A stretch of DNA of 64,000 nt. Source: an uncultured Clostridia bacterium (GTDB lineage: Bacteria; Bacillota; Clostridia; Christensenellales; UBA1242). The notes beneath the pieces were generated by a model. That model saw only the letters and a program-made list of their open reading frames with translations. It ran no database searches and was not told the origin of the DNA. The translations under genes and the position numbers were made by a program. Below, piece by piece: positions 4,781-55,536 of the stretch. The DNA lies in contig CAKVMH010000001.1 of NCBI GenBank assembly GCA_934772045.1, forward strand, positions 234,066 to 298,065, written 5' to 3'. Every line of letters starts with the position of its first letter. Positions within the stretch are counted from its first letter, which is position 1.

Positions 4781-5055
4781 TTATAATTTCCTAATAAATT
4801 TAATTTTGGCAAGTCAAGCCCTGCCTTGTTTTTTGGTGTGCATTTTAAAATTCGTTTAACAGTTAAAACTAAACCCCAAATTGCCCCAAAATTTAAAATT
4901 GAATTAAAACCATATTCACTGCAAGTTGGCAAAAAATGGCAACTTTTTTGCATGCCGTGCCTAATTATTAGCCTGTAAACCCAAATTAACAACAAAAATA
5001 TTGCCGTTAAAGGAAAGCACAATATATAGTACACTTTAAACCAAAACTCAGCCAT
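4768..5055 (-). CDS. yidD: Membrane protein insertion efficiency factor YidD
   Basis: CHFLPTCSEYG motif; overlaps the rnpA stop and the yidC start. Confidence 0.85.
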   Translation of the reverse strand: MAEFWFKVYYILCFPLTAIFLLLIWVYRLIIRHGMQKSCHFLPTCSEYGFNSILNFGAIWGLVLTVKRILKCTPKNKAGLDLPKLNLLGNYKWKC

Positions 5056-5434
5056 TTATAGGCTCGCTTTGATTTGTTTTTGCTTCACTAGGTGTAGTTT
5101 CCACAAGCAAATTTGCCTTTTTTAATGCACGCAAAAGTTCCACTTCAATTTCCACACTTGTTTTATTTTTTGCCATTTCTTTTGCGGTTATAACATAATT
5201 TTTATTTGCAAATTTTTCAATATTCAACCTGCACGCTTCGCTTATAATTCGCTTAACCCTGCCACGCACAACGCTGTTGCCAACTTGTTTGCTGACAGAT
5301 ATGCCAATCTGTGGGGTTGACCGCCAATTTTTTGTGTAATGAATGTAAAAACTGGTGCTGTGCACTGTTTCACCCTTTTTGTAAACATAGTTAAATTCTT
5401 TACGCTTTTTCAGCCTGTTCGATTTTTTAAGCAT
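5048..5434 (-). CDS. rnpA: Ribonuclease P protein component
   Basis: Basic 128-aa protein with NSVVRGRVKRII (RNR-like motif), directly downstream of rpmH. Confidence 0.9.
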   Translation of the reverse strand: MLKKSNRLKKRKEFNYVYKKGETVHSTSFYIHYTKNWRSTPQIGISVSKQVGNSVVRGRVKRIISEACRLNIEKFANKNYVITAKEMAKNKTSVEIEVELLRALKKANLLVETTPSEAKTNQSEPING

Positions 5435-5443
5435 AAATAATCC

Positions 5444-5578
5444 TTATTTGCTTAATTCTTTTTTGCCTTTGTTTCTGCGCCTTTTTAAAACCCTACGTCC
5501 AGATAATGATTTCATTCTAGCCCTGAAACCATGCACTTTACTGCGTTGTTTTTTCTTTGGTTGGTAAGTTTGCTTCAT
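5444..5578 (-). CDS. rpmH: 50S ribosomal protein L34 (44 aa; absent from the ORF track)
   Basis: Manual translation gives [54 protein letters not shown] at 5583-5590 (minus strand); stop lies 9 nt before the rnpA ATG. Confidence 0.95.
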
Positions 5579-5924
5579 AATTCCTCCTAAAATTTTTAAT
5601 GGTTAAAAAAATAAACCAACGCCTAAATTTCGTTAGTTCGACAACAAAATTAAAGGCGTCAATAGGCATGTCAAGGCAATAAACCTTTCAGTAAACATAA
5701 ATTAGCAAAAAGCCAATTTATTTTTAGATAAATCTAAAACGGAAAAATCCTATTATCTTCAATATAACAAAAAAAACAACCATTGTCAAGAAATAATTTC
5801 TTTCAATAGGTTTGTTTTTTCTAAATGTAAATAAATCAATTCATTTACTTTTTATCAGTCCTGCCCGAATGCGTGAATACGTGTTGCTGAAAATGTAGTT
5901 TTAATATGTACTACTGTTGTTTCT

Positions 5925-6191
5925 CTAGCCCTTCAATCCACGAGATTGTCGGTCCATATCTTCGACTACGATGTCGTAAATTTCGCCCAAAGTACGGCAA
6001 TATTTAAGCACGTCCCAAGGTTCGTTTGTGTGAAAATGAATTTTAATTGTTTCGCTGTATTTGCCTAAACCATCACCGACAGCAATAAGGCAATCGCCTT
6101 TAAAATTCTTTAAAAAATAATCCCTTACTTTATCTTCTTCCAAATTTTCACCTGAAATTAAAAGTTGTGTGTCATACCTAAATTCAATCAT
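5925..6191 (-). CDS. Stand-alone 88-aa protein resembling the central domain of YloV/FakA (DAK2-fusion family)
   Basis: GDCLIAVGD...IKIHFHTNEPWDVLKYCRTLGEIYDIVVEDMDRQ matches, from memory, the GDSLLVV..D...KVHVHT..PG.VL......G.L..IKIENM..Q pattern. It has its own GGAGA SD. Confidence 0.5.
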   Translation of the reverse strand: MIEFRYDTQLLISGENLEEDKVRDYFLKNFKGDCLIAVGDGLGKYSETIKIHFHTNEPWDVLKYCRTLGEIYDIVVEDMDRQSRGLKG

Positions 6192-6380
6192 AAATTCTCC
6201 TTAAATTTTTACCTGCCTTACCCCATGCTCGTTAGCAAAAAAGTGCAATGAACAGCCTTTATATAAAATTATGCAACAAAGCAAAAAAAAAGTAAAGCAA
6301 TGTTAAACACTCTTTACTTTAATTTTTAATTGATAAAGCACAAAGCTTGTGCATTTACTTTAAAGTTAATAAAATAACGC

Positions 6381-6914
6381 TTAATTAATATATTTGTCTG
6401 CACTTATATTGTCGAACTTTGCATTTTCATATTCGTCGATAATACTAGACGAACTATCATATTTAACATTATCACAAATTACAGGTTGTTCTAAAATAAC
6501 CTGCGGGTGAGTGTATTTTTCAAGGTATTTATATAAAACAATTGTCACATAACAAGTGTCTGAACAATTGTGTCTAAAATCTGGGCTATAAATTTCAAAT
6601 GCATCAACTTCACCAATCTCATTTTCAGGTATCGCTTGCAAAATGTCACATATTGTTGGCTTAAAGAAAAAGTCGCAATCGTCTAATTCGATTTCAATTG
6701 TATCCACAACCTTTAATTTAGACTGGTCACACAAAACCCTACTCGAAGGGTTCCACGCGAACGATTGACAAGAAATATCCGATGTGCCTATGTATGTTAA
6801 AGGCAGATTTACATTCTTTTCAAAACATAAAGAGGGTTTACCATCGTTTGATAAACGCATTAAAGGTTTAATTCTGAAAGCATAGTCAATCATCATAAAT
6901 TTGTCAAAATTCAT
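6381..6914 (-). CDS. Hypothetical protein (177 aa, Cys-rich, no recognisable domain)
   Basis: Long ORF; the ATG at 6914 is preceded by a GAGGG SD. Confidence 0.5.
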   Translation of the reverse strand: MNFDKFMMIDYAFRIKPLMRLSNDGKPSLCFEKNVNLPLTYIGTSDISCQSFAWNPSSRVLCDQSKLKVVDTIEIELDDCDFFFKPTICDILQAIPENEIGEVDAFEIYSPDFRHNCSDTCYVTIVLYKYLEKYTHPQVILEQPVICDNVKYDSSSSIIDEYENAKFDNISADKYIN

Positions 6915-7122
6915 ATTAACCCTCACTATTGTTATATTCTTAGTGTATCACAAATCAACAATTTTTGCAATATATTGATACAATTTTTGCAAATCTATTT
7001 CCAAAACAAATTGAATGTGTTAATATATGTATGTAAGTTTAAGTGTACCTTTTAAAAATGGCAATATTAACGCGATTTATTATATTAACTTTAATTTTAA
7101 AACAGCTTAATACTTTCTTTAT

Positions 7123-7147
7123 GCGGTTATGGCGGAATGGCAGACGC
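7123..7147 (+). pseudogene. 25-nt 5' fragment of tRNA-Leu(CAG) (acceptor and D arm) with duplicated leader
   Basis: 7101-7147 duplicates 7293-7339 (leader CTTAATACTTTCTTTAT plus GCGGTTATGGCGGAATGGCAGACGC), then diverges into element A. Confidence 0.8.
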
Positions 7148-7267
7148 TCGTCACAATCTGCGCTTTGGCAATTTTGCTTTTCGCAAACTTCGCTTGTTGC
7201 TTGATTGCTCCTCTATCCCTTTAAACGCACTCTGTTAGCCTTTAAAGGGAACCCTGGAAACTAGCGC
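7148..7267 (+). repeat. tRNA-linked two-hairpin element, copy A
   Basis: Starts TCGTCACAATCTG; hairpin 1 TTTTGC/GCAAA; conserved TTGCTCCT; hairpin 2 TCCCTTTAAA/TTTAAAGGGA (7216-7250). Ends with CCTGGAAACTAGCGC, which is antisense to the tRNA-Leu anticodon arm. Confidence 0.75.
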
Positions 7268-7314
7268 TAACTTTATCTTAACTTACCATTAATACAACTT
7301 AATACTTTCTTTAT

Positions 7315-7400
7315 GCGGTTATGGCGGAATGGCAGACGCGCTAGTTTCAGGTACTAGTGGGAGTTATCCCTTGCAGGTTCAAATCCTGTTAACCGCACCA
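7315..7400 (+). tRNA. tRNA-Leu(CAG), class II, CCA encoded
   Basis: Manual cloverleaf: acceptor GCGGTTA/TAACCGC, anticodon stem CTAGT/ACTAG with loop TTCAGGT, long variable arm, T-loop TTCAAAT. Confidence 0.95.
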
Positions 7401-7453
7401 AAAAAATTTTAAACAATTAAATTGTATTTCTAATTTTATAACAAATTCACTTA

Positions 7454-7478
7454 GGATTTGAACCCAAGGGTTCAATCC
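7454..7478. repeat. Palindromic pair of tRNA T-arm-like segments
   Basis: GGATTTGAACCC-AA-GGGTTCAATCC, a T-arm-like sequence facing its own inverted copy. Confidence 0.6.
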
Positions 7479-7675
7479 CTGTCGGGGCGGACCGCACGTC
7501 ATCAAGGCTCCCAAACAAGTTTTGCTTTGCAAACTTTTTGGGATAAAGGAAACACCAAGCATCAAAACGATACATTTGAAATTTATTTCAAATTGAGTAC
7601 AAAGCGCAGGTGTTGACGCGCTCCCCTCGTTACGCTAAAATCTGCTCATTGGGGCAGTTTTTTTAACGCTACTCG

Positions 7676-7691
7676 CCTGTTAACCGCACCA
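7676..7691 (+). pseudogene. 16-nt 3' fragment of tRNA-Leu (CCTGTTAACCGCACCA)
   Basis: Exact repeat of 7385-7400, followed immediately by element copy B. Confidence 0.8.
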
Positions 7692-7799
7692 ACGTCGCAA
7701 CCTGCGCTGAGTAATCGTTTTGCAGACGCAAAACTCATTTTACACTTGGTTGCTCCTTTTCCCCTACAAACCCACTTCGTTTGGCTTTGTGGGGGCTCC
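7692..7799 (+). repeat. tRNA-linked two-hairpin element, copy B
   Basis: ACGTCGCAACCTG start; hairpin 1 GTTTTGC-AGAC-GCAAAAC; TTGCTCCT; hairpin 2 CCCCTACAAA.../...TTTGTGGGGG. Confidence 0.75.
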
Positions 7800-7884
7800 A
7801 TTTTATGACAAACAATAGATAAACAATAAGATTAACTGTTACTGAAGCGAACTCAATAACTAGCGGTGGGTGCCTAAAAAGTAG

Positions 7885-7911
7885 CACAAGTTTTAGCGAC
7901 TTGTGTTTTTT
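7885..7911 (+). terminator. Rho-independent terminator (shared tRNA-locus module)
   Basis: GCACAAGTTTTAGCGACTTGTG plus T6. Nearly identical copies occur at 9672-9700 and 27025-27051. Confidence 0.75.
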
Positions 7912-8064
7912 AAGGTAAATTTGTTAAATTATTATTTCGTTCTACTCAGTTTTTAAATATCTTGTTTTGTTAATAAACTAATTTATTTCGCTTCTCTCAT
8001 AAATATGGTTTGTTGTATCCACAAAAAAAATTCACCCATAAGGTGAATTTTTAAATTTAAAGCT

Positions 8065-8628
8065 TTATTTTGTTGAAGCGACAGTTTCCAAAACACCGCC
8101 AGTAAGACCTAACAGCATAAAGTAACCACCCACGCTAACTAATGTTTTAACATCACTCAACATTCCACTATGATTTGCAAGTTTGTTTGCAACAACAAAG
8201 AAAGTGATGAAAGCAACGAGTGCAAAAACAGCCAAAGCAATGCCTAAAATAATGTTCAGTAAATTAAACCTAATGCCAAGCAAAGATATAATTTCAAATA
8301 CAATCACAACCATACTTACAAGCACTGTAAGGAAATAGCACCAAGCAAACAAATTAGTTACAAATGCTGTATCTTCAGCATTTTTTAAGAAAATTAAACT
8401 ATTTGCACCTGTTGTAAAATCTGTTGAATTTTTACCATTAAAAAGTGCTGTGATAACATCTGTACCTTTAATAGGTTCACTATTAGATACAACACCTGCA
8501 ATATTTGATTTAGTTACAAAACAAGGCATGAATAAAGTGCAAACAGTAACTAATGCAAGGACAATAATACAAATTGAAAAGATAACCCTTTTCATGTTAT
8601 TTTTCTTTTTTGATTTTTTCTTTGCCAT
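8065..8628 (-). CDS. Hypothetical membrane protein (187 aa, about 4 TM)
   Basis: Lys-rich N-terminus followed by hydrophobic segments; GGGGAGG SD; hairpin terminator at about 8025-8055. Confidence 0.6.
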   Translation of the reverse strand: MAKKKSKKKNNMKRVIFSICIIVLALVTVCTLFMPCFVTKSNIAGVVSNSEPIKGTDVITALFNGKNSTDFTTGANSLIFLKNAEDTAFVTNLFAWCYFLTVLVSMVVIVFEIISLLGIRFNLLNIILGIALAVFALVAFITFFVVANKLANHSGMLSDVKTLVSVGGYFMLLGLTGGVLETVASTK

Positions 8629-8753
8629 AATTCCTCCCCTTTTATTTCATCATAAAAAATTTAACCTTCCGCTGTCAAGCAAATTTCTAAAACTTTTTAA
8701 AGCAATTTCGTAACTTTAATTTTGCGAAAACAAAATTCCATAATGCTATCAAG

Positions 8754-9542
8754 TTATATTTTTTTGCAGATATATAACATGTGGTTAGAAATACCCTGCA
8801 TTTCCAAATTTTCACATGTGTTTAAATGATATTTTTTGAAAAGTTCAAATTCATCGTCCGACATTTGAAATTCTTTCGTTTTTTCCATAATGTCCAAAAT
8901 ACTGTCAGTTGTTGCAGAATGTAGTTTTTTAACATGTTTATTTTTAAACAAATTCTCAAACTCTTTAATCCTGAACCCAGTAAAAACTTGTTCTGGATAT
9001 TGTTTAACTTTATAATTGTTATCAAAATTTTCTTCCAAACCAGCTTTTAAATTTCCATTCATGTAACAATCAAATATAAAAGAATCAACAGGCAAGTATG
9101 CAAACATAATTATACCGTTTGTTTTTGTCACGCGGATTGCTTCATCAATAGCTTTTTCTTGGTCTTCTCTCGTATAAAGATGATACATTGGCCCAAAAGA
9201 CAAAACCATATCAAAACTTTCATCTTCTAATTTGTCCAATTTGATAGCATCTCCTTGAAAGGCTATCAAGTTCTTCAACCCTTTTGCATTACCTTTTAAA
9301 ACTTGAAGATTATGTTTCACATATTCTACTGACGTAACATCCATACCCTTTTTTGCAAGTGTAATGGAATACCTGCCCGTTCCAGCACCAATTTCTAATA
9401 TTTTCATTTTGTTTTTTATATATTTGTCAATGTACGTCATAGTGGTAAAGTATTCAAGTTGCCCATGCCTGCTTTTAACAAGCCTAGCATCTTCATCATA
9501 GTTGTTGTAAACTTTATCCACAATCTTTTTCCTGTTGTCCAC
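8754..9542 (-). CDS. Class I SAM-dependent methyltransferase
   Basis: ILEIGAGTGRYS motif I. I prefer the GTG start at 9542, preceded by an AAGGAGA SD, over the upstream ATG at 9590. Confidence 0.8.
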   Translation of the reverse strand: MDNRKKIVDKVYNNYDEDARLVKSRHGQLEYFTTMTYIDKYIKNKMKILEIGAGTGRYSITLAKKGMDVTSVEYVKHNLQVLKGNAKGLKNLIAFQGDAIKLDKLEDESFDMVLSFGPMYHLYTREDQEKAIDEAIRVTKTNGIIMFAYLPVDSFIFDCYMNGNLKAGLEENFDNNYKVKQYPEQVFTGFRIKEFENLFKNKHVKKLHSATTDSILDIMEKTKEFQMSDDEFELFKKYHLNTCENLEMQGISNHMLYICKKI

Positions 9543-9671
9543 ACTTTCTCCTTTCCAATTATTTTCTTCATAAAGAATAACATAGATCAATTATTTTTTC
9601 AAAATGTATTACATTCTAAACCTCATATTTTTCAAAATTATCATCAAATCGCAAGGTTGAATTTCATTAAC

Positions 9672-9700
9672 AAAAAAACACAAGTCGCTAAAACTTGTGC
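9672..9700 (-). terminator. Rho-independent terminator after tRNA-Ser
   Basis: The minus strand reads GCACAAGTTTTAGCGACTTGTG plus T7. Confidence 0.75.
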
Positions 9701-9710
9701 TTTCGAGAGT

Positions 9711-9798
9711 TGGCGCAGAGAGGGGGATTTGAACCCCCGAAGGCTTTCACCTTATCGCTTTTCGAGAGCGACACGTTCGACCACTCCGACATCTCTGC
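9711..9798 (-). tRNA. tRNA-Ser(CGA), class II, CCA encoded
   Basis: Acceptor GCAGAGA/TCTCTGC, anticodon stem TCGCT/AGCGA with loop CTCGAAA, long variable arm, T-loop TTCAAAT. Confidence 0.95.
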
Positions 9799-9960
9799 AT
9801 AATGAATAACTTTGTCTTACAAATATTTTGTTTAATAAATTAAATAATGTGGGTGAACGTGTTTAAAGTCTCCTAAAAATAGAAAATTTTTGGGAATCAA
9901 GGAAAAGCCAAGTTTATGCTGAAATTTGCGTTTAGCAAATAAATTTAAACTTGTGCTTTG

Positions 9961-9984
9961 ACGCTCGACCACTTTTGTATCTGC
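9961..9984 (-). pseudogene. Degenerate 5' fragment of tRNA-Ser with duplicated leader
   Basis: The minus strand reads ATTAT-GCAGATACAAAAGTGGTCGAGCGT, versus ATTAT-GCAGAGATGTCGGAGTGGTCGAACGT in the intact gene. It is followed by a truncated copy of the GCACAAGTTT terminator arm. Confidence 0.5.
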
Positions 9985-10223
9985 ATAATAGATGATTTAG
10001 TCCTGCAAACATTCTGTTTGATTACCCCAACCTAAGCATGCGTATTTATAATAGCACAAAATATTAACAATGTCTATCTAAGAAATCGGTTTTTATGAAA
10101 ATATTGTTTTCGCACAACAAAAAAGTTATCCTCATTATTTTATCTTTTGTGGATAACTTTAAAACATTTTAATTAGCTATTTCCGCTGTTTTTCTTGTGA
10201 AAGAAAACCCTAAAACTAAGTTA

Positions 10224-11321
10224 CTATCTTGATTTTACTGGCAAAATAAGGAATGTGAAATCATCACCTTCGCAAGGTGTAATGATACATGGTTGGATTG
10301 CGCTGTTAAGTTTAATTTTGACATATGGGTTATCAATAACGCGCAAGCAGTCGCTGAAATATTTTGAGTTGAAAGATATGTTTAAATCATTACCCTTCAC
10401 CCCAACAGTAATATTTTCCTTTGTGTTACCAATTTCGCTATTTGATGTGAGCATCATATTCTTTTCTTTGATGTCAAATTTAACCAAATTGTTTTTATCA
10501 ATACGGCTCAAAACACTGGCGCGGTCAATTGCGTCTTCAAGTTGCTCTTTATTGATAGTAACAATTGTGCCAAAATCTTTAGGCACGATTTGTTTATAGT
10601 TAATAAATTGCCCATCAATTAAGCGATTAATAATAATTGTGTCGCCTAAATCGACCATAATATTGTTTGAATGCACATAAACCTTAACAGTGCCTTCACC
10701 GTCAAGCATGCGGATAATTTCATACAAATTTTTGCCAGGAATGATAAGTTTAAAGTCGCTTGTAGACATAACCAACTGCTTATTTGCGATTGAAAGACGG
10801 CAACCGTCCACAGCAACCGCGCGGATACTTGTTCCAGTTGTTTCAATCAAAATACCCTTTAAAATAGGGCGACTATCGTCCTGCGCAACAGCGTAGTATA
10901 CATTGTTGATAAGTGTGCGGAAATCTTCTTTGTTAATTTCAAAGAAATTATTTTTTTCCACTTCCTTCAACCCAGGGAACTCACTAACTTCCATACATTG
11001 CAACACGCCTTCGCTGTCCGTGTAGGAAATTTTAAGTTGATTGCGTTCGTTCAATTCGCACTCAATTTGTTCATTTGTAAGTTTTTTAATATACTCACCA
11101 AACAACCTGCCAGGGACAACTGTTTCACCCGCACTTATAACTTCTGCACGAATAGTTTTTTCAATGCTAATTTCAAGGTCGGTTGCCGTAAGCACAAGTT
11201 TATCGTCAGCACAAACCATTTTAATGCCTTCAAGGATTTGGCTTGTAGTTTTACCACTGATAGCTTTTGAAACAACACCAATTGCTTCGCTAAGTTCAAG
11301 CCCATCACATCTAAATTGCAT
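10224..11321 (-). CDS. dnaN: DNA polymerase III beta sliding clamp
   Basis: 365-aa three-domain clamp-like sequence; GGAGT SD. Confidence 0.95.
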   Translation of the reverse strand: MQFRCDGLELSEAIGVVSKAISGKTTSQILEGIKMVCADDKLVLTATDLEISIEKTIRAEVISAGETVVPGRLFGEYIKKLTNEQIECELNERNQLKISYTDSEGVLQCMEVSEFPGLKEVEKNNFFEINKEDFRTLINNVYYAVAQDDSRPILKGILIETTGTSIRAVAVDGCRLSIANKQLVMSTSDFKLIIPGKNLYEIIRMLDGEGTVKVYVHSNNIMVDLGDTIIINRLIDGQFINYKQIVPKDFGTIVTINKEQLEDAIDRASVLSRIDKNNLVKFDIKEKNMMLTSNSEIGNTKENITVGVKGNDLNISFNSKYFSDCLRVIDNPYVKIKLNSAIQPCIITPCEGDDFTFLILPVKSR

Positions 11322-12489
11322 ATTTACTCCTTTTATCCATGCCTAACTTACGGAAATTCAAGTTTTTATATCTAAAAGATATAACCCCTAGCGCCTAAAT
11401 TTTTTGCAAGTTTTAGACCGCAATTTTTACAACATCATATTAGCAAACAAAACCCAATATGTCAACCAAATGCGTCATTTTTTGTCGAATTTTTTTGGCT
11501 TTATATACTTAAAAATAGTTTGTTTTAAGAGTATTGCGCAACCCACACGCCAGCGCTGTTTTTCTAAATAATTTTTGATTTTTTGGGTAGTGATTTTTTT
11601 ATTAGGCGATGTGCAAATGTGGATAACTTTACCCCACCACAACATTTAGTGGCTTTCGACAAAATTTGCTAAAATTTGCAACAATTTTTATCCACATTTT
11701 CTGTGTATAACCCTGTGAAAAGTTATGTGCATAACAAAAAAAACGATGTGGACAACCCCTTCTAAACCCCTTAAATATAGGCGATTAGGGCAAATTTTGA
11801 CTGTTTTCTTTTAAGTTTTCTTTATATTAAATTCACGCTCGCGCTTATTAAATTTTAAGTTAACATGTAATATATGTACGCACGCGTATTACGCCCGTTT
11901 TTCTTTTAATATGTAAAAAATAAAATCTGAACGCGAACTTTATATTTATTACCTTTTTATATAAAGTTTAAAAAATCAAATTAATTATCACCAATATTTA
12001 TTTTTATGCGTTAAATTTATTTAAATCCCCTTAAAAGCATCATAATACTGCGGATTATAACCTGCACAAGTTAAATAAAACCAAACATCAATTTATCGTA
12101 TGTCATGATTAGCTCACAAACCTGCCATCCTCACATAAACTTTTGCATTAACAAAATTTCCATTTCAAACATTCAACAAAACAACACCTTGTATCTTTCT
12201 TGGCATAAATTTGCCTTTACATTATATACACGCACGCGAACTTAAAGTAAAAAATTACAAATTTAATATTTTATTTCTTAATATTAGTTTAACTACATTT
12301 TAAGTAATACAAAAAAATATATTCAAATTTTAAAAGTTTTTATACATAAAACAAATTTTCTACCTTTTAAGTTTGTGCACTCGTATTATATAAGTTAACT
12401 AAAAGTATCAGAAAACAAAATTTACGTAAATTTCAAATCACATTGACAAGTTATCCACATTGTGGTACAATATCAACAAGGAGAATATT
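11322..12489. other. Putative oriC: DnaA-box cluster plus AT-rich unwinding region between divergent dnaN and dnaA
   Basis: Perfect TTATCCACA boxes at 11618-11626 (rc), 11688-11696 and 12451-12459. One-mismatch boxes at 11702-11710, 11726-11734 and 11747-11755. About 500 bp of very AT-rich DNA at 11900-12420. Confidence 0.7.
12443..12471 (+). promoter_or_regulatory. dnaA promoter with an embedded DnaA box
   Basis: TTGACA (12443-12448), 17-nt spacer containing TTATCCACA, then extended -10 TGGTACAAT. AAGGAG SD lies downstream. Confidence 0.7.
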
Positions 12490-13839
12490 ATGTTTTTGCT
12501 TGACCAATGGAAAAAAGTTTTAAACAGATTGGAAGCCGAAGTTACAGCGGTGACATTCGATTTATGGATTAACACCCTTACTCCAATCCAGTACGCAAAT
12601 GATGAACTGATTTTAATGGCACCAAGTGTTACAGCGAAAAACCAAGTTAACCAACCAGGCATTTTTGAAAAGATAACAAAATGCGTTAGGGAAGAATTTA
12701 ACTCATACACTTTTGTTCGCGTAACCGAAAAGCAAGAATACGAAGAGAGTGTCCGTAAGCAGGAGCAAGAACTTGAAAAGATAATGTCCAATGTGACTAA
12801 TCTAAAATCTAAGTTCAACCCAAAATACACTTTCGACGCGTTTGTTGTTGGTAAATCAAACCAAGTTGTATGTGCAGCAATGCAAAATGTTGCTGAACAT
12901 CCAAGTGAAAAATTTAATCCACTGTTTATCTATGGTGGTGTTGGGCTTGGTAAAACTCACCTGCTTCATGCGGTGGGTAATTACCTAAACACGCATAGGC
13001 CTGACCTTAATGTCCTTTATGTTACATGTGAAAAGTTTACTAATGATTATGTTGATTCAATCCGCAAAGGTAAAGACAATTCAAACAACGATTTTAGGGA
13101 CAAGTATCGTAACGTAGATGTGCTTATGATTGACGACATTCAATTCATAAGCAACAAAATGGGTATTCAGGAAGAATTCTTCCACACATTCAATGACCTT
13201 TATCAAAACAATAAACAAATCATCATTGCTTCCGATCGTTCACCAAAAGAAATGACAGCTTTGGAAGAAAGGTTAAGGAGCCGTTTCAGTTCTGGCCTTA
13301 TCCAAGACATTCAGGAACCAGATTATGAAACAAAAGTTGCAATTATCAAAAAGAAATGTAGCCAAGAAGGTTATTTAGTCGACGACGACGTTATTGACTT
13401 CGTCGCATTAAAAACCGGCACCAACATTCGTGAAATGGAAGGCATATTAAGTAAAGTTGTGTTTTACAGCGGTTTGCTTGGCAAAACTCATGCAAGCATG
13501 GAAGACGCTAAGGAAGCACTTAAAGATTATGTTGAAGAAGAAAAAACAAATTTAAACGCAGAAAAAATTATGAACACTTGTTGCGACTTCTTCAAAATCA
13601 GCAAGGAAGATTTAATCGGTAAAAAGAAAAATAAAGAAATTGTTGAACCAAGGCAACTTTGCATTTATCTCATAAACGACATGTTAAACATTCCGCTAAC
13701 CGCAATAGGCGACTTATTCGGCGGAAGGGATCACACAACAATCATGCATGCAAGGGATAAAATAAGTAATCAAATTAAAGTTAATCCACATGTTAAAACT
13801 TTGGTAAACGATATCCGCAGTAGATTGTTGAAATATTAA
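12490..13839 (+). CDS. dnaA: Chromosomal replication initiator DnaA
   Basis: Walker A GGVGLGKTHLL, Walker B MIDDIQF, C-terminal DNA-binding region ...GRDHTTIMHA. The ATG at 12490 follows the SD. Confidence 0.95.
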   Translation: MFLLDQWKKVLNRLEAEVTAVTFDLWINTLTPIQYANDELILMAPSVTAKNQVNQPGIFEKITKCVREEFNSYTFVRVTEKQEYEESVRKQEQELEKIMSNVTNLKSKFNPKYTFDAFVVGKSNQVVCAAMQNVAEHPSEKFNPLFIYGGVGLGKTHLLHAVGNYLNTHRPDLNVLYVTCEKFTNDYVDSIRKGKDNSNNDFRDKYRNVDVLMIDDIQFISNKMGIQEEFFHTFNDLYQNNKQIIIASDRSPKEMTALEERLRSRFSSGLIQDIQEPDYETKVAIIKKKCSQEGYLVDDDVIDFVALKTGTNIREMEGILSKVVFYSGLLGKTHASMEDAKEALKDYVEEEKTNLNAEKIMNTCCDFFKISKEDLIGKKKNKEIVEPRQLCIYLINDMLNIPLTAIGDLFGGRDHTTIMHARDKISNQIKVNPHVKTLVNDIRSRLLKY

Positions 13840-26934: not shown

Positions 26935-27005
26935 AAAATGAGGACCCCACAAAGCCAAACGAAGCGGGTTTGAAGGGGAAACGAGAAAGACAAGAGAGAA
27001 GGCAA
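26935..27005 (-). repeat. tRNA-linked element, partial copy E (hairpin 2 half)
   Basis: The minus strand reads TTTCCCCTTCAAACCCGCTTCGTTTGGCTTTGTGGGGTCCTCATTTTAT, about 85 percent identical to the copy B hairpin 2 and its CATTTTAT tail. Confidence 0.65.
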
Positions 27006-27024
27006 CATTTTGTGTTTTTTAACT

Positions 27025-27051
27025 AAAAAACACAAGTTGCTAAAACTTGTG
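27025..27051 (-). terminator. Rho-independent terminator (shared tRNA-locus module)
   Basis: The minus strand reads GCACAAGTTTTAGCAACTTGTG plus T6. Confidence 0.75.
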
Positions 27052-27056
27052 CAAAA

Positions 27057-27175
27057 CGCATCAGGGCTCCCACAAAGGCTATTAAGTGCCTTTGATGGGA
27101 ATGAGGAGCAAACGGCAAAAGGTCAGAGGTTGTTTTTACAAAAAACAACCCGACAAATATGCCAGGTTGCGACGA
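27057..27175 (-). repeat. tRNA-linked two-hairpin element, copy C (begins at the nucleotide after the tRNA CCA)
   Basis: The minus strand reads TCGTCGCAACCTGG...; hairpin 1 GGTTGTTTTT/AAAAACAACC; TTGCTCCT; hairpin 2 CCCATCAAAGGC/GCCTTTGTGGG. Confidence 0.75.
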
Positions 27176-27252
27176 TGGTGCGTCCAGAGGGATTCGAACC
27201 CCCGACCTTTGGTTCCGTAGACCAACGCTCTATCCAGCTGAGCTATGAACGC
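27176..27252 (-). tRNA. tRNA-Arg(ACG), CCA encoded
   Basis: GCGTTCATAGCTCAGCTGGATAGAGCG-TTGGT-CTACGGA-ACCAA-...TTCGAAT...GGACGCACCA. Confidence 0.95.
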
Positions 27253-27294: not shown

Positions 27295-27313
27295 GTTGGG
27301 CTACGGAACCAAC
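27295..27313. repeat. Inverted copy of the tRNA-Arg(ACG) anticodon stem-loop, 42 nt upstream of the tRNA 5' end
   Basis: The plus strand GTTGGGCTACGGAACCAAC matches the tRNA sense strand GTTGGTCTACGGAACCAAA at 17 of 19 positions, but the gene is on the minus strand. Confidence 0.8.
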
Positions 27314-27605
27314 ATGGGAACCCTGTTAAAGCCAAACAAACTTTTTGAAACTGCATTAACATTTTTTTAATGCTTTTATATGATAACATAATTAAACAAA
27401 ATTTGCAACATTTTTTAAAAAATTTATTAAAATTTGTGTTTTATGGCTAATTAAAAGCGTAATGAAACAAATTTACCTTATAACTGATATAAAATAAGTT
27501 TACTATAAAACCTGCGCATAAGTTTGAAAAGAAAAGCAAAATGCTATATAATAATGTATAGCATAAGTCAAATTGAAATATGTGAAAATAATAAAGGAGC
27601 CTACC

Positions 27606-47146: not shown

Positions 47147-47181
47147 GCGCCAGACGAAAATGGATAGCACAATGGTCTTCG
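47147..47181 (+). pseudogene. 5' fragment of tRNA-Arg(TCG) with duplicated leader
   Basis: ATCTTAATAT-GCGC...ATGGATAGCACAATGGTCTTCG is shared with the intact gene at 47310-47355. Nucleotides 5-13 are replaced by CAGACGAAA. Confidence 0.75.
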
Positions 47182-47183
47182 TT

Positions 47184-47290
47184 TCGTCACAACTCGCTAT
47201 TGAACTAGTTTGCGCGTTACACTTGCAAACTTCGCTTATTAGCGGTTGCTCCTTAACCCCTTCAAAACATTCGTTTTGAGGGGACCCCAG
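47184..47290 (+). repeat. tRNA-linked two-hairpin element, copy D
   Basis: TCGTCACAACTCG...; hairpin 1 GTTTGC/GCAAAC; TTGCTCCT; hairpin 2 CCCTTCAAAAC-attc-GTTTTGAGGGG. Confidence 0.75.
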
Positions 47291-47319
47291 AATGGTTCCT
47301 CGACTATTAATCTTAATAT

Positions 47320-47394
47320 GCGCTCATGGTGTAATGGATAGCACAATGGTCTTCGGAACCATTAGTGAGGGTTCGAATCCTTCTGGGCGCGCCA
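47320..47394 (+). tRNA. tRNA-Arg(TCG), CCA encoded
   Basis: Acceptor GCGCTCA/TGGGCGC, anticodon stem ATGGT/ACCAT with loop CTTCGGA, T-loop TTCGAAT. Confidence 0.9.
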
Positions 47395-55250: not shown

Positions 55251-55536
55251 CACAAAGCAACAGGTTTGTGTCATAGAAGTGGGTAATTTCCCATAAATGA
55301 GGTTTTGAAAAATAAACATAAATCGCGAAGCAACTTGTTTGCAAAACCTTTACATTTAATATTAATTAAATTAGTTTTAAATGTACCGATTAATAGGAAA
55401 CAAAGTAATGAAAAGAAACCACAAGGAAGCGGGTATCCGTTCCGTGGTGTCTTGTCATAAATGTGGGCAATTGCCCATAGATGAAGTTTGCGTAAATTTA
55501 TTTAGCAAACGATAGAGTAGGGCAAATTGCCCACAT

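Follow-up and report, generated by a model that had tools for sequence, protein, structure and literature searches.

The segment complementary to the anticodon arm of tRNA-Leu(CAG), located upstream of this gene in the window (the whole 64-kb stretch of DNA analyzed), was one part of a composite unit built around S, a previously undescribed, dispersed and structured repeat of approximately 105 nt with two hairpins. The units followed a single plan: a partial copy that runs from the outer boundary of the tRNA gene to a position x, an insert that is usually S, an 11-nt to 18-nt reverse complement across x, a spacer of 16–52 nt, and the intact tRNA. Our preferred reading, held tentatively and with slightly less than even confidence, is that the complementarity is mainly a target-templated product of the copying of units at tRNA loci, probably by template switching.

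The inverted segment upstream of tRNA-Leu(CAG)

The initial annotation had reported an inverted copy of the anticodon arm in the leader of tRNA-Leu, and the match was confirmed: 7253–7267 (CCTGGAAACTAGCGC) matched 7338–7351 of the tRNA (GCGCTAGTTTCAGG) in inverted orientation at 14 of 15 positions, with one extra base. Its reverse complement, GCGCTAGTTTCCAGG, contained 11 contiguous exact bases corresponding to tRNA-Leu positions 24–34. The segment was located, as described, 47 nt 5′ of the tRNA (7315–7400 according to both ARAGORN and Rfam) and directly 3′ of hairpin 2 (7216–7250) of S copy A. The 15-mer itself was too long: its first two C residues belong to the conserved 3′ end of S (GGGAACCC), so only 7255–7267 is target-specific (hereafter, the segment following S is called the tail).

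The initial annotation did not include a 51-nt direct repeat (7097–7147 and 7289–7339, 96% identical) composed of approximately 27 nt of leader and tRNA-Leu positions 1–25. Because 7097–7147 duplicates 7289–7339, S copy A has part of the tRNA, copied from its 5′ end, on one side and the inverted segment on the other. The order at the locus was partial copy to position 25, one T, S, inverted positions 24–36, 47-nt spacer, and intact tRNA (Table 1). When tails were shuffled, none of 100 reached the observed match score in the 900-nt neighborhood of tRNA-Leu.

The only promoter-like site on the forward strand was found upstream of the partial tRNA copy (7058–7086), and there was none between 7150 and 7315; the inverted segment is therefore very likely part of the tRNA-Leu primary transcript. 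The duplicated leader begins approximately at the predicted transcription start. A start downstream of 7267, which the initial annotation had considered, is unlikely given the position of the promoter-like site. In RNAfold predictions for the 304-nt transcript (7097–7400), 7253–7267 paired with 7338–7351 in both the minimum-energy and the centroid structures, in line with the pairing in cis that had been proposed. Pairing of the leader with tRNA-Leu is plausible on this folding model, and its use in the cell is a possibility.

Table 1. Features of the composite units in the window and of further units in other genomes (complement, tRNA positions covered by the inverted copy).
Location	Strand	Feature	Details
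7058..7086	+	Promoter-like site ATGGCA-17-TATATT	Predicted start ~7093-7095, just before duplicated leader
7097..7147	+	Direct-repeat copy, leader and partial tRNA-Leu	tRNA positions 1-25 = 7123-7147
7149..7254	+	S copy A	nhmmer E = 4e-22; fold z = -3.8
7255..7267	+	Inverted copy of tRNA-Leu positions 24-36	Spans x = 25 of partial copy
7268..7314	+	Spacer	Last ~26 nt (7289-7314) = second leader copy
7315..7400	+	Intact tRNA-Leu(CAG)	7338-7351 = partner of inverted copy; ARAGORN, Rfam
7453..7464	-	Inverted copy GGTTCAAATCCT of tRNA-Leu T arm	12 nt, positions 62-73
7517..7618	-	S_minus, part of mirror unit	nhmmer
7676..7692	+	Duplicated tRNA-Leu 3′ end (CCTGTTAACCGCACCA)	Direct repeat
7693..7799	+	S copy B (S_B)	Starts 1 nt after duplicated CCA end; nhmmer E = 3e-22
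9855..9862	-	Inverted copy ACACGTTC of tRNA-Ser positions 21-28	8 exact bases (14/15 in relative L265)
9864..9996	-	Partial tRNA-Ser(CGA) copy (to ~position 25) and S	Upstream of tRNA-Ser (9711-9798, -)
26945..27039	-	Further, weaker S copy	E = 2e-5
27064..27174	-	S starting 1 nt after tRNA-Arg(ACG) CCA end	Followed by shared terminator
27295..27345	-	S hairpin 2 remnant and inverted copy	Upstream of tRNA-Arg(ACG) (27176-27252, -)
47147..47181	+	Partial tRNA-Arg(TCG) copy, positions 1-36	Block substitution at positions 5-13; then TTT
47185..47288	+	S upstream of tRNA-Arg(TCG) (47320-47394)	Fold z = -6.4
47291..47303	+	Inverted copy AATGGTTCC of tRNA-Arg(TCG) positions 36-44	9 bases exact; one extra base, then CGA
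L016		Unit at Arg-ACG	x = 41; complement 37-47
L041		Unit at Arg-ACG	x = 42; complement 37-50
L095		Unit at Arg-ACG	x = 42; complement 37-49
L086		Unit at Ser-CGA	x = 21; complement 15-29
L106		Unit at Thr-TGT, 25-nt hairpin insert	x = 31; complement 26-36
L136		Unit at Ser-GGA, 55-nt insert, three tandem units	x = 18; complement 13-24

The S repeat and its arrangement at tRNA genes

All 30 full copies of S showed the same fold: an unpaired CGUC, a long irregular hairpin closed by GCAAC/GUUGC, an unpaired UCCUYUU, a second hairpin closed by CCC(C)/GGG(G), and an unpaired RCCC(C). In copy A, these elements were CGTC, a long hairpin closed by CAATC/GATTG, the single-stranded CTCCTCTA, hairpin 2, and AACCC. 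The mean fold z-score of the 30 copies was −4.4 relative to dinucleotide shuffles, and the closing helix contained compensatory changes (at one pair, GC in 12 copies, CG in 6, and UA in 4).

A profile built from the window copies found six clear and two weak matches to S in the 64 kb. Pattern scanning of species-representative genomes yielded 120 loci; the first profile found S in 42 of them, all from uncultured Clostridia, with hosts that included Christensenellaceae, Oscillospiraceae, Acutalibacteraceae, and Monoglobus bins (gut and rumen). The improved profile recovered approximately 90 copies in approximately 60 loci of uncultured Clostridia. Pattern matches in other phyla were due to chance, as were all 14 matches to the scaffold pattern in viral contigs. 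A metagenome scan with TCTACGGAACN{0,4}CGTCRCAA gave 120 loci, none with S; this pattern occurs in coding DNA, for instance where genes for ribosomal protein S9 begin (FYGTGRRK). Spo0A was encoded on a metagenome-assembled contig matching the window. Rfam 15 at permissive thresholds (E ≤ 1) returned only tRNAs and noise for window positions 5000–11000, and only tRNA, with no family for S or for the module X described below, in five loci bearing S or X. The literature search returned nothing relevant on S, on such an architecture, or on miniature inverted-repeat elements or partial tRNA copies at tRNA genes.

The copies of S were located between housekeeping genes. Clustering of the open reading frames within 1.5 kb of every copy gave no recurrent protein, and Pfam searches of the neighbors found housekeeping genes only, with no polymerase, reverse transcriptase, transposase, or recombinase adjoining any copy; in window positions 0–55 kb, Pfam detected no reverse transcriptase, transposase, or integrase domain. 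Near-identical pairs of S at two loci (L080 and L135) did not bound an insertion sequence and flanked pyrR/pyrB and bacA/ychF instead. An apparent Shine-Dalgarno sequence and ATG after hairpin 2 opened no conserved reading frame. In 48 copies, a search for a closing stem or terminal inverted repeat around S gave a best stem of 5.2 nt on average vs. 4.7 nt in shuffles. Most S tails had no complement nearby.

Four tRNA genes of the window showed the plan (Leu-CAG, Arg-TCG, Ser-CGA, and Arg-ACG), as did approximately 10 in other uncultured Clostridia. These amount to approximately 14 independent loci with all three junctions, and the complement always spanned the end point of the duplication, x being inside the complementary stretch or at its edge in every case (13, 16, 17, 18, ∼20, 21, 25, 25, 31, 36, and 41–42). 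Wherever a partial copy ended at an internal x and was followed by S or another insert, the reverse complement of the tRNA across x followed the insert. The inserts of L136 and L106 were unrelated to S, and the plan still held. Near-identical units occurred in tandem at L016, L041, and L136. At tRNA-Arg(ACG) of the window, the inverted copy (TTGGTTCCGTAGCCCAAC, 27295–27312) was 18-nt-long and matched positions 27–44 at 17 of 18 bases, with no partial tRNA copy left. In four partial tRNA copies, the D-arm region carried a block substitution with perfect identity on either side. The spacing between the inverted copy and its partner was 65–74 nt in 8 of 11 cases (33, 33, and 51 nt in the others).

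Of the 160-nt tRNA flanks in S-bearing genomes, 7 of 54 on the upstream side and 5 of 54 on the downstream side (12/108) had an exact inverted match of at least 10–11 nt to their own tRNA; the corresponding numbers in control loci of other bacteria were 0 of 28 and 0 of 27 (0/55), with longest matches of 9 and 8 nt. Inverted matches of 7–9 nt were common by chance.

Mirror units were observed 3′ of tRNA genes, on the opposite strand, in the window (7401–7692) and at L062, L072 (Leu-AAG), and L078 (Leu-TAG). The unit of the window comprised, in order along the minus strand, a 16-nt copy of the start of the reverse-complemented tRNA (7692–7677), 57 nt, S (7618–7517), 38 nt, the inverted T-arm copy (7464–7453), a 52-nt spacer, and the tRNA gene. 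The 5′ ends of S_B and S_minus both pointed away from the duplicated 3′ end at 7676–7692, which S_B abuts and from which S_minus is 57 nt distant. The tail of a mirror unit has the sense of the tRNA and so could not, as RNA, pair with it. At L062 a terminator directly followed the sense tail, and at L072 a terminator hairpin was inside the duplicated stretch. The same arrangement was found at a non-tRNA module, X (L113 and L123), where a 14-nt copy of the X head preceded S and the tail was complementary to the X head. The plan is thus indifferent to strand and present at a non-tRNA target, which argues that its logic is that of nucleic-acid copying and not of a tRNA-specific RNA function.

Comparison by BLAST of the S flanks with all tRNAs of the examined loci revealed that the 5′ end of S (CGTC) was within 0–1 nt of mature tRNA termini in at least 12 loci. 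It followed CCA in the same orientation, with 0–1 extra base (window 27174 and 7693, L075, L078, and L118), or was oppositely oriented and adjoined position +1, usually across one extra base (L028, L032, L084, L095, L104, L105, L106, and L130). A third type of junction was with the internal position x of a partial sense copy, and a fourth was with antisense 3′ fragments (L062, L072, L096, and L111). Selection against tRNA disruption would not by itself produce junctions this precise at the ends of mature tRNAs in 12 or more independent loci.

Co-variation and turnover of the tails

The initial annotation had asked whether related genomes keep the complementarity through compensatory changes. 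They did so at Arg-ACG and Ser-CGA across genomes; between the window and its close relative L265, the tails changed at a neutral-like rate. The Arg-ACG tRNAs differed between genomes (CCAAAGGCT or CCGAAGGTTG; the tRNA reads GGAACCAAAGGCT in L095 and GGAACCGAAGGTTG in L041) and the tails changed with them, each fitting its own tRNA. The Ser-CGA tRNAs differed at two positions (GAACGTGT in the window and GAATGTGC in L086), and again the tails followed. In L016, L041, and L095, the S bodies were 61–69% identical and the spacers 55–76% identical, and the tails were perfect over 11–14 nt; those of L016 and L095 were identical at 17 of 17 nt. Perfect tails beside diverged S bodies mean that the complementarity was either maintained or repeatedly regenerated. 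The pattern in these three loci fits repeated re-templating from the local tRNA.

The orthologous locus L265 was reached through a 187-aa neighbor, with synteny kept in this one relative (neighboring protein 88% identical); homologs of the methyltransferase at 8754–9590 did not keep synteny and yielded no orthologous loci. The paired tRNA segments were unchanged between the window and L265. The Leu tail showed one change, which breaks a pair (CTAGCAC), and the Ser tail differed at one position; nearby noncoding DNA differed by 4–6%, approximately the rate of change in the tails. L265 lacked window positions 7102–7195 (94 bases comprising part of the leader, the partial tRNA copy, and S positions 1–47) and 7401 to approximately 7884 (∼484 bases with two copies of S), and retained S positions 48–106, the tail, and the spacer at Leu. 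Its Leu CCA end was followed by ACTCTCGAAAG and the shared terminator, which is the trailer of tRNA-Ser. Within other genomes, S-containing blocks of 144–216 nt were 98–100% identical at two sites. A 155-nt length difference between L141 and L142 was a scaffolding gap of N.

Origin of the complementarity

We place the S unit among the small nonautonomous repeats of bacteria; what sets it apart is an unusual link to tRNA and a putatively target-templated junction. Like REP/BIME sequences and MITEs (such as RUP and Correia), S is short, noncoding, structured, multicopy, and intergenic between housekeeping genes, with mosaic modules (S and X). Unlike these, its copies have diverged strongly within a genome with their helices kept by compensatory changes, and its 5′ end is joined precisely to tRNA termini. 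S is not a MITE: the stems around it gave no terminal inverted repeats, and there was no fixed target-site duplication, the duplicated stretches ranging from 13 to approximately 75 nt. The unit shares with T-box leaders a structured leader able to pair with the anticodon region of a specific tRNA, but the pairing involves 11–18 nt of stem and loop and not a 3-nt specifier plus NCCA; there was no Rfam match to the T-box riboswitch, and the unit is upstream of the tRNA itself and not of aminoacyl-tRNA synthetase, amino-acid biosynthesis, or transporter genes. The bridge (seek) RNA of IS110/IS1111 carries, around hairpins, the target in sense to the left of the break and in reverse complement to its right. 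The S unit likewise has sense-left and antisense-right copies on either side of hairpins, but its sense copy is the whole outer part of the gene (13–42 nt plus leader) and not a 4-nt to 9-nt guide; no DEDD recombinase adjoined S, whose neighbors were housekeeping genes, and neither a donor-binding loop nor a core dinucleotide was recognized. The TnpB omega RNA of IS200/IS605 was rejected because no tnpB was found near S copies, the tail is the reverse complement of sequence approximately 33–74 nt downstream, and the targets had no shared motif (TAM) beside them. An integrase island or scar did not agree with the lack of an integrase Pfam match in window positions 0–55 kb, with the duplication of 5′ tRNA parts, or with break points at 18–42. 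A group I intron had no Rfam match, and the tRNA was intact downstream and not interrupted. For a SINE-like (non-LTR) retroposon mobilized in trans by a reverse transcriptase, the picture was mixed: S has a sharp CGTC end, both kinds of partial copy, and variable duplications, with no reverse-transcriptase partner identified and no poly(A)-like tail in the copies examined here.

Primer-binding sites of retroviruses and LTR elements are re-copied from the primer tRNA and so track it; copia-type elements pair with an internal tRNA region. The S unit resembles such a site in having a tRNA complement of 12–18 nt by a structured leader, flanked by direct repeats, but its complement is internal (13–50) and never the 18 nt at the tRNA 3′ end, spans the break, and occurs in both orientations. 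With the complement not at the tRNA 3′ end, and with no gag/pol and no reverse-transcriptase domain among the genes examined, an LTR-type retroelement was rejected. S and the composite unit lack defining features of T-box, bridge, and TnpB guide RNAs, as well as of MITEs, integrase scars, group I introns, and LTR elements. By analogy, its nearest mechanistic counterparts may be retroplasmid tRNA capture, the re-copying of primer-binding sites, and tandem inversion duplications. The Mauriceville and Varkud retroplasmids of Neurospora are autonomous plasmids encoding their own reverse transcriptase, and their variants have captured mitochondrial tRNA sequences by template switching of that enzyme. 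As in these variants, the S junctions are exactly at tRNA termini, including the CCA end, which would fit a polymerase jumping between the end of an element RNA and the tRNA 3′ end; unlike them, S is a chromosomal noncoding repeat of approximately 105 nt with no linked enzyme found and with an extra inverted copy of the target. Tandem inversion duplications at Salmonella lac arise by snap-back or template switching at stalled forks. They share with the S unit a direct duplication with a short inverted segment at the join, two or more switches, and later remodeling by deletion, but the S-unit join always includes one particular repeat element, and the events cluster where tRNA genes begin or end.

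Under the templating reading, the start of S would be attached to a free 3′ end stopping at x or at a mature tRNA terminus, its far end would be extended by a short sequence copied from the opposite strand of the same target, and copying would restart outside the gene; such a restart would regenerate the intact tRNA gene and allow units to pile up in tandem. Units installed at tRNA genes always showed three junctions: a direct copy of the outer part of the gene (from the boundary or leader to x) is fused to the insert at its 5′ end; at its 3′ end, the insert is followed by 0–11 filler bases and by 11–18 nt from the opposite strand across x; and the spacer and intact gene come third. The enzyme, which is hypothetical, would be a reverse-transcriptase-like polymerase capable of end-to-end switching on tRNA, tRNA cDNA, or tRNA-gene strands. 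End-to-end switching would account for the exact tRNA termini, the 0–3 filler bases, the occurrence of both sense and antisense (cDNA) pieces, and the leader-length duplication, and the tail would be complementary to the anticodon arm because the tRNA gene had templated it. From S copies abutting tRNA ends, S RNA or its antisense would be released with termini cut by the tRNA 3′-processing enzyme and RNase P. The anatomy of the units, their recurrence and indifference to strand, the joint variation of tail and tRNA, the structure of S, and the presence or absence of units in relatives are direct observations, whereas we infer both a template-switch or reverse-transcription origin and the definition of S RNA termini by tRNA-processing enzymes.

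Several observations weigh against templating. Neither beside any copy nor in window positions 0–55 kb did the searches reveal a polymerase, reverse transcriptase, transposase, or recombinase, so that the machinery is hypothetical. No single simple reaction path yields all three junctions, and the junction between inverted copy and spacer is left unexplained; the anatomy was accounted for only in part by staggered-cut transposition, by hairpin capping, by an inversion between the inverted repeats, or by reverse transcription from a tRNA primer. The tail-to-partner spacing of approximately 70 nt looks like a ruler, which the model does not predict. The perfect tails beside degenerate or deleted S (Arg-ACG in the window and Leu in L265) and the identity of the L016 and L095 tails could equally reflect selection on the tail, and the D-arm block substitutions in four partial copies are unlike neutral decay.

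The initial annotation had likened the layout to a conserved scaffold followed by a variable guide-like segment. The layout and the complementarity to the adjacent tRNA stood; that the segment evolved as a guide to pair with the tRNA was not supported, given the 3′-side units, the unrelated inserts, the X target, the mostly noncomplementary tails, and the neutral change relative to L265. A guide or regulatory role for the tail is possible, and is favored by the long-range perfect matches and by tails that outlive the rest of the unit. Rather unlikely, although a serious candidate, is a self-targeting guide in which S and its tail form a small RNA whose 3′ segment pairs with the tRNA gene or pre-tRNA and directs cleavage or homing at x, the tail being used and not merely produced, as primer-binding sites and internal guide sequences are. 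The tail complements the tRNA in a single run across x, as a splint or internal guide would; it changes with the tRNA from genome to genome, remains perfect where S has fallen to 61–69% identity, is inside the transcript, and is predicted to pair. Its distance to the target clusters near 70 nt, and the scaffold, with conserved single-stranded motifs and covarying helices, resembles protein-bound guide RNAs. However, most S tails have no complement nearby, the 3′-side tails are in tRNA sense (that of L062 running at once into a terminator), the offset of x from the ends of the complement is not fixed, and the targets are without a conserved flanking motif; ORF clustering and Pfam searches of the neighbors found no linked effector gene. 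In addition, a new target could be acquired only once a tail had been copied from it, so the templating step of our preferred reading would already be required.

We consider it distinctly unlikely that the tail is a cis-regulatory leader, that is, a selected antisense that delays or tunes the folding and processing of tRNAs, mostly those that read the rare codons CGN, CUG, and UCG. In the minimum-energy fold as in the centroid, the predicted pairing does take the place of the D and anticodon arms, hairpin 2 and the tail outlive the rest of S and the partial copy (Arg-ACG in the window and Leu in L265), and the changes at Arg-ACG and Ser-CGA loci are compensatory. Against these stand the 3′-side units, which could not act in this way, the presence of the plan at a non-tRNA target, its restriction to a minority of tRNA genes, and the tails of the window and L265, which change at approximately the rate of the surrounding noncoding DNA and in one case lose a pair. 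An ordinary tandem duplication of the tRNA 5′ region with a chance inverted match would explain the 51-nt direct repeat flanking S, and matches of 7–9 nt are indeed frequent by chance, but the shuffled tails that never reached the observed score, the approximately 14 independent loci with the complement always across the duplication end point, and the control flanks, none of which reached 10 nt, make it highly improbable. Beyond the templating reading itself, it is conceivable, although we regard it as improbable, that S units are a bacterial nonautonomous tRNA-homing retroelement: the termini of its RNA would be cut by tRNA-processing enzymes because the source copies abut tRNA ends, and its 3′ guide would be copied from the target at each insertion and then direct the next round of cleavage and insertion at the same tRNA gene. 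Such an element would be a self-programming guide RNA that takes its specificity from its target.

If the templating reading holds, a widespread group of uncultured gut and rumen Clostridia would carry approximately 100 copies of S per genome (extrapolated from the copy density in the examined loci), the copying of S would be tied to tRNA ends, and S would write a short inverted copy of its target beside itself. A pre-tRNA-Leu leader able to pair with 14 nt of the D/anticodon arm would then be a side effect. Several tRNA precursors have leaders able to pair with 11–18 nt of the tRNA body, which may affect their maturation whatever the origin of the complementarity. Should the tail serve as a guide, these units would be a natural example of a guide copied from its own target. 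The approximately 14 loci are a concrete set for testing template switching between tRNA and element in vivo. On the templating reading, they would represent a new route by which small noncoding elements spread and remodel bacterial tRNA loci, leaving partial tRNA copies and units in tandem and giving genes new leaders and trailers.

Spacing and block substitutions in the tRNA-derived segments

In 8 of the 11 units, 65–74 nt separated the end of the inverted tRNA copy from the point where its partner in the tRNA began; the remaining three units had distances of 33, 33 and 51 nt. The units compared were those at tRNA-Leu, tRNA-Ser and tRNA-Arg(ACG) and the 3′-side unit (a mirror construction downstream of tRNA-Leu) in the window, and those of L016, L041, L095, L062 and L106 (L-numbers denote loci from other uncultured Clostridia genomes). 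When inverted-copy units were compared across loci, a partner nearer the tRNA start was offset by a longer spacer.

Four partial tRNA copies carried, relative to the real tRNA, a substituted block of 7–11 nt in the acceptor-3′/D-arm region, with both sides of the block identical to the real tRNA in all four; this pattern is unlike random decay. In the tRNA-Arg(TCG) partial copy, the new block (GACGAAA) showed complementarity to UUUCGUC, a stretch at the start of S, the dispersed two-hairpin repeat of approximately 105 nt.

In a single case, L111, an antisense tRNA fragment was joined to S with an apparent stop at tRNA position 38, a position read from the flank sequence (the BLAST match, to a tRNA-Lys, spans 51–64 only). 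Because the adjoining position 37 is usually heavily modified, this one junction, as placed from the flank, would fit a reverse-transcription stop on mature tRNA.

Positions of the features described
Feature	Sequence	Position	Strand
Partial copy with block substitution	Window	47151–47158	
Partial copy with block substitution	Window	~9978–9984	-
Partial copy with block substitution	L041	~45–60	
Partial copy with block substitution	L106	~862–871	
Antisense tRNA fragment joined to S	L111	~4822–4855	
X module	L039	4540–4642	
X module	L126, L071, L038, L123, L113		
Tandem units at tRNA-Ser(GGA)	L136	7982–8400	-
dnaN	Window	10224–11321	-
dnaA	Window	12460–13839	+
Terminator	Window	7884–7910	+
Terminator	Window	9674–9700	-
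Terminator	Window	27026–27052	-
tRNA-Met/tRNA-Glu spacer	Window	55251–55536	

Other inserts and the 3′ end of S

A second repeat module, X (approximately 105 nt; TAATCCGTTATAAACTNCGTTATG...GACCAACAAGGTC...GAGCCTTG), occurred singly, in arrays or fused 5′ of S, and the stretch 3′ of each module showed complementarity to an X module's head. An Rfam search with X returned no match. Three tandem units lay 5′ of tRNA-Ser(GGA) in L136 (related genome GCA_037193285.1); their insert differed (55 nt, AGAGGATACCCGGTGTGGTATCC...GGGCTCCGGACG), with the plan of partial copy, insert and inverted copy unchanged.

In S copies generally, the number of C residues at the 3′ end equaled the number of G residues closing hairpin 2 (GGGG-N-CCCC or GGG-NN-CCC), and this agreement suggests that there is either a second partner or a symmetric protein site. 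Many S tails started with YATTRTG.

Genomic setting and terminator

The divergent orientation of dnaN and dnaA, with rnpA, yidC and jag close by, shows that the window takes in the replication-origin region, in an unusual gene order.

Three separate tRNA/S transcription units in the window ended in one terminator hairpin, CACAAGTTTTAGC(G/A)ACTTGTG followed by a T run, often with ACTCTCGAAAG 5′ of it; the terminator was also present in L265, a close relative, and in L137. When flanks were searched against tRNAs by BLAST, its stem-loop agreed with a tRNA-Leu(TAG) anticodon arm in 18 of 19 positions, and the terminator itself may thus be of tRNA origin.

Within the tRNA-Met/tRNA-Glu spacer lay pieces of S, antisense and degenerate, together with two palindromes, TGGGCAAT(T)TGCCCA. 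A complete antisense S adjoined tRNA-Glu at the equivalent position in L104 and L084, which indicates that the arrangement is old and common to more than one genome.
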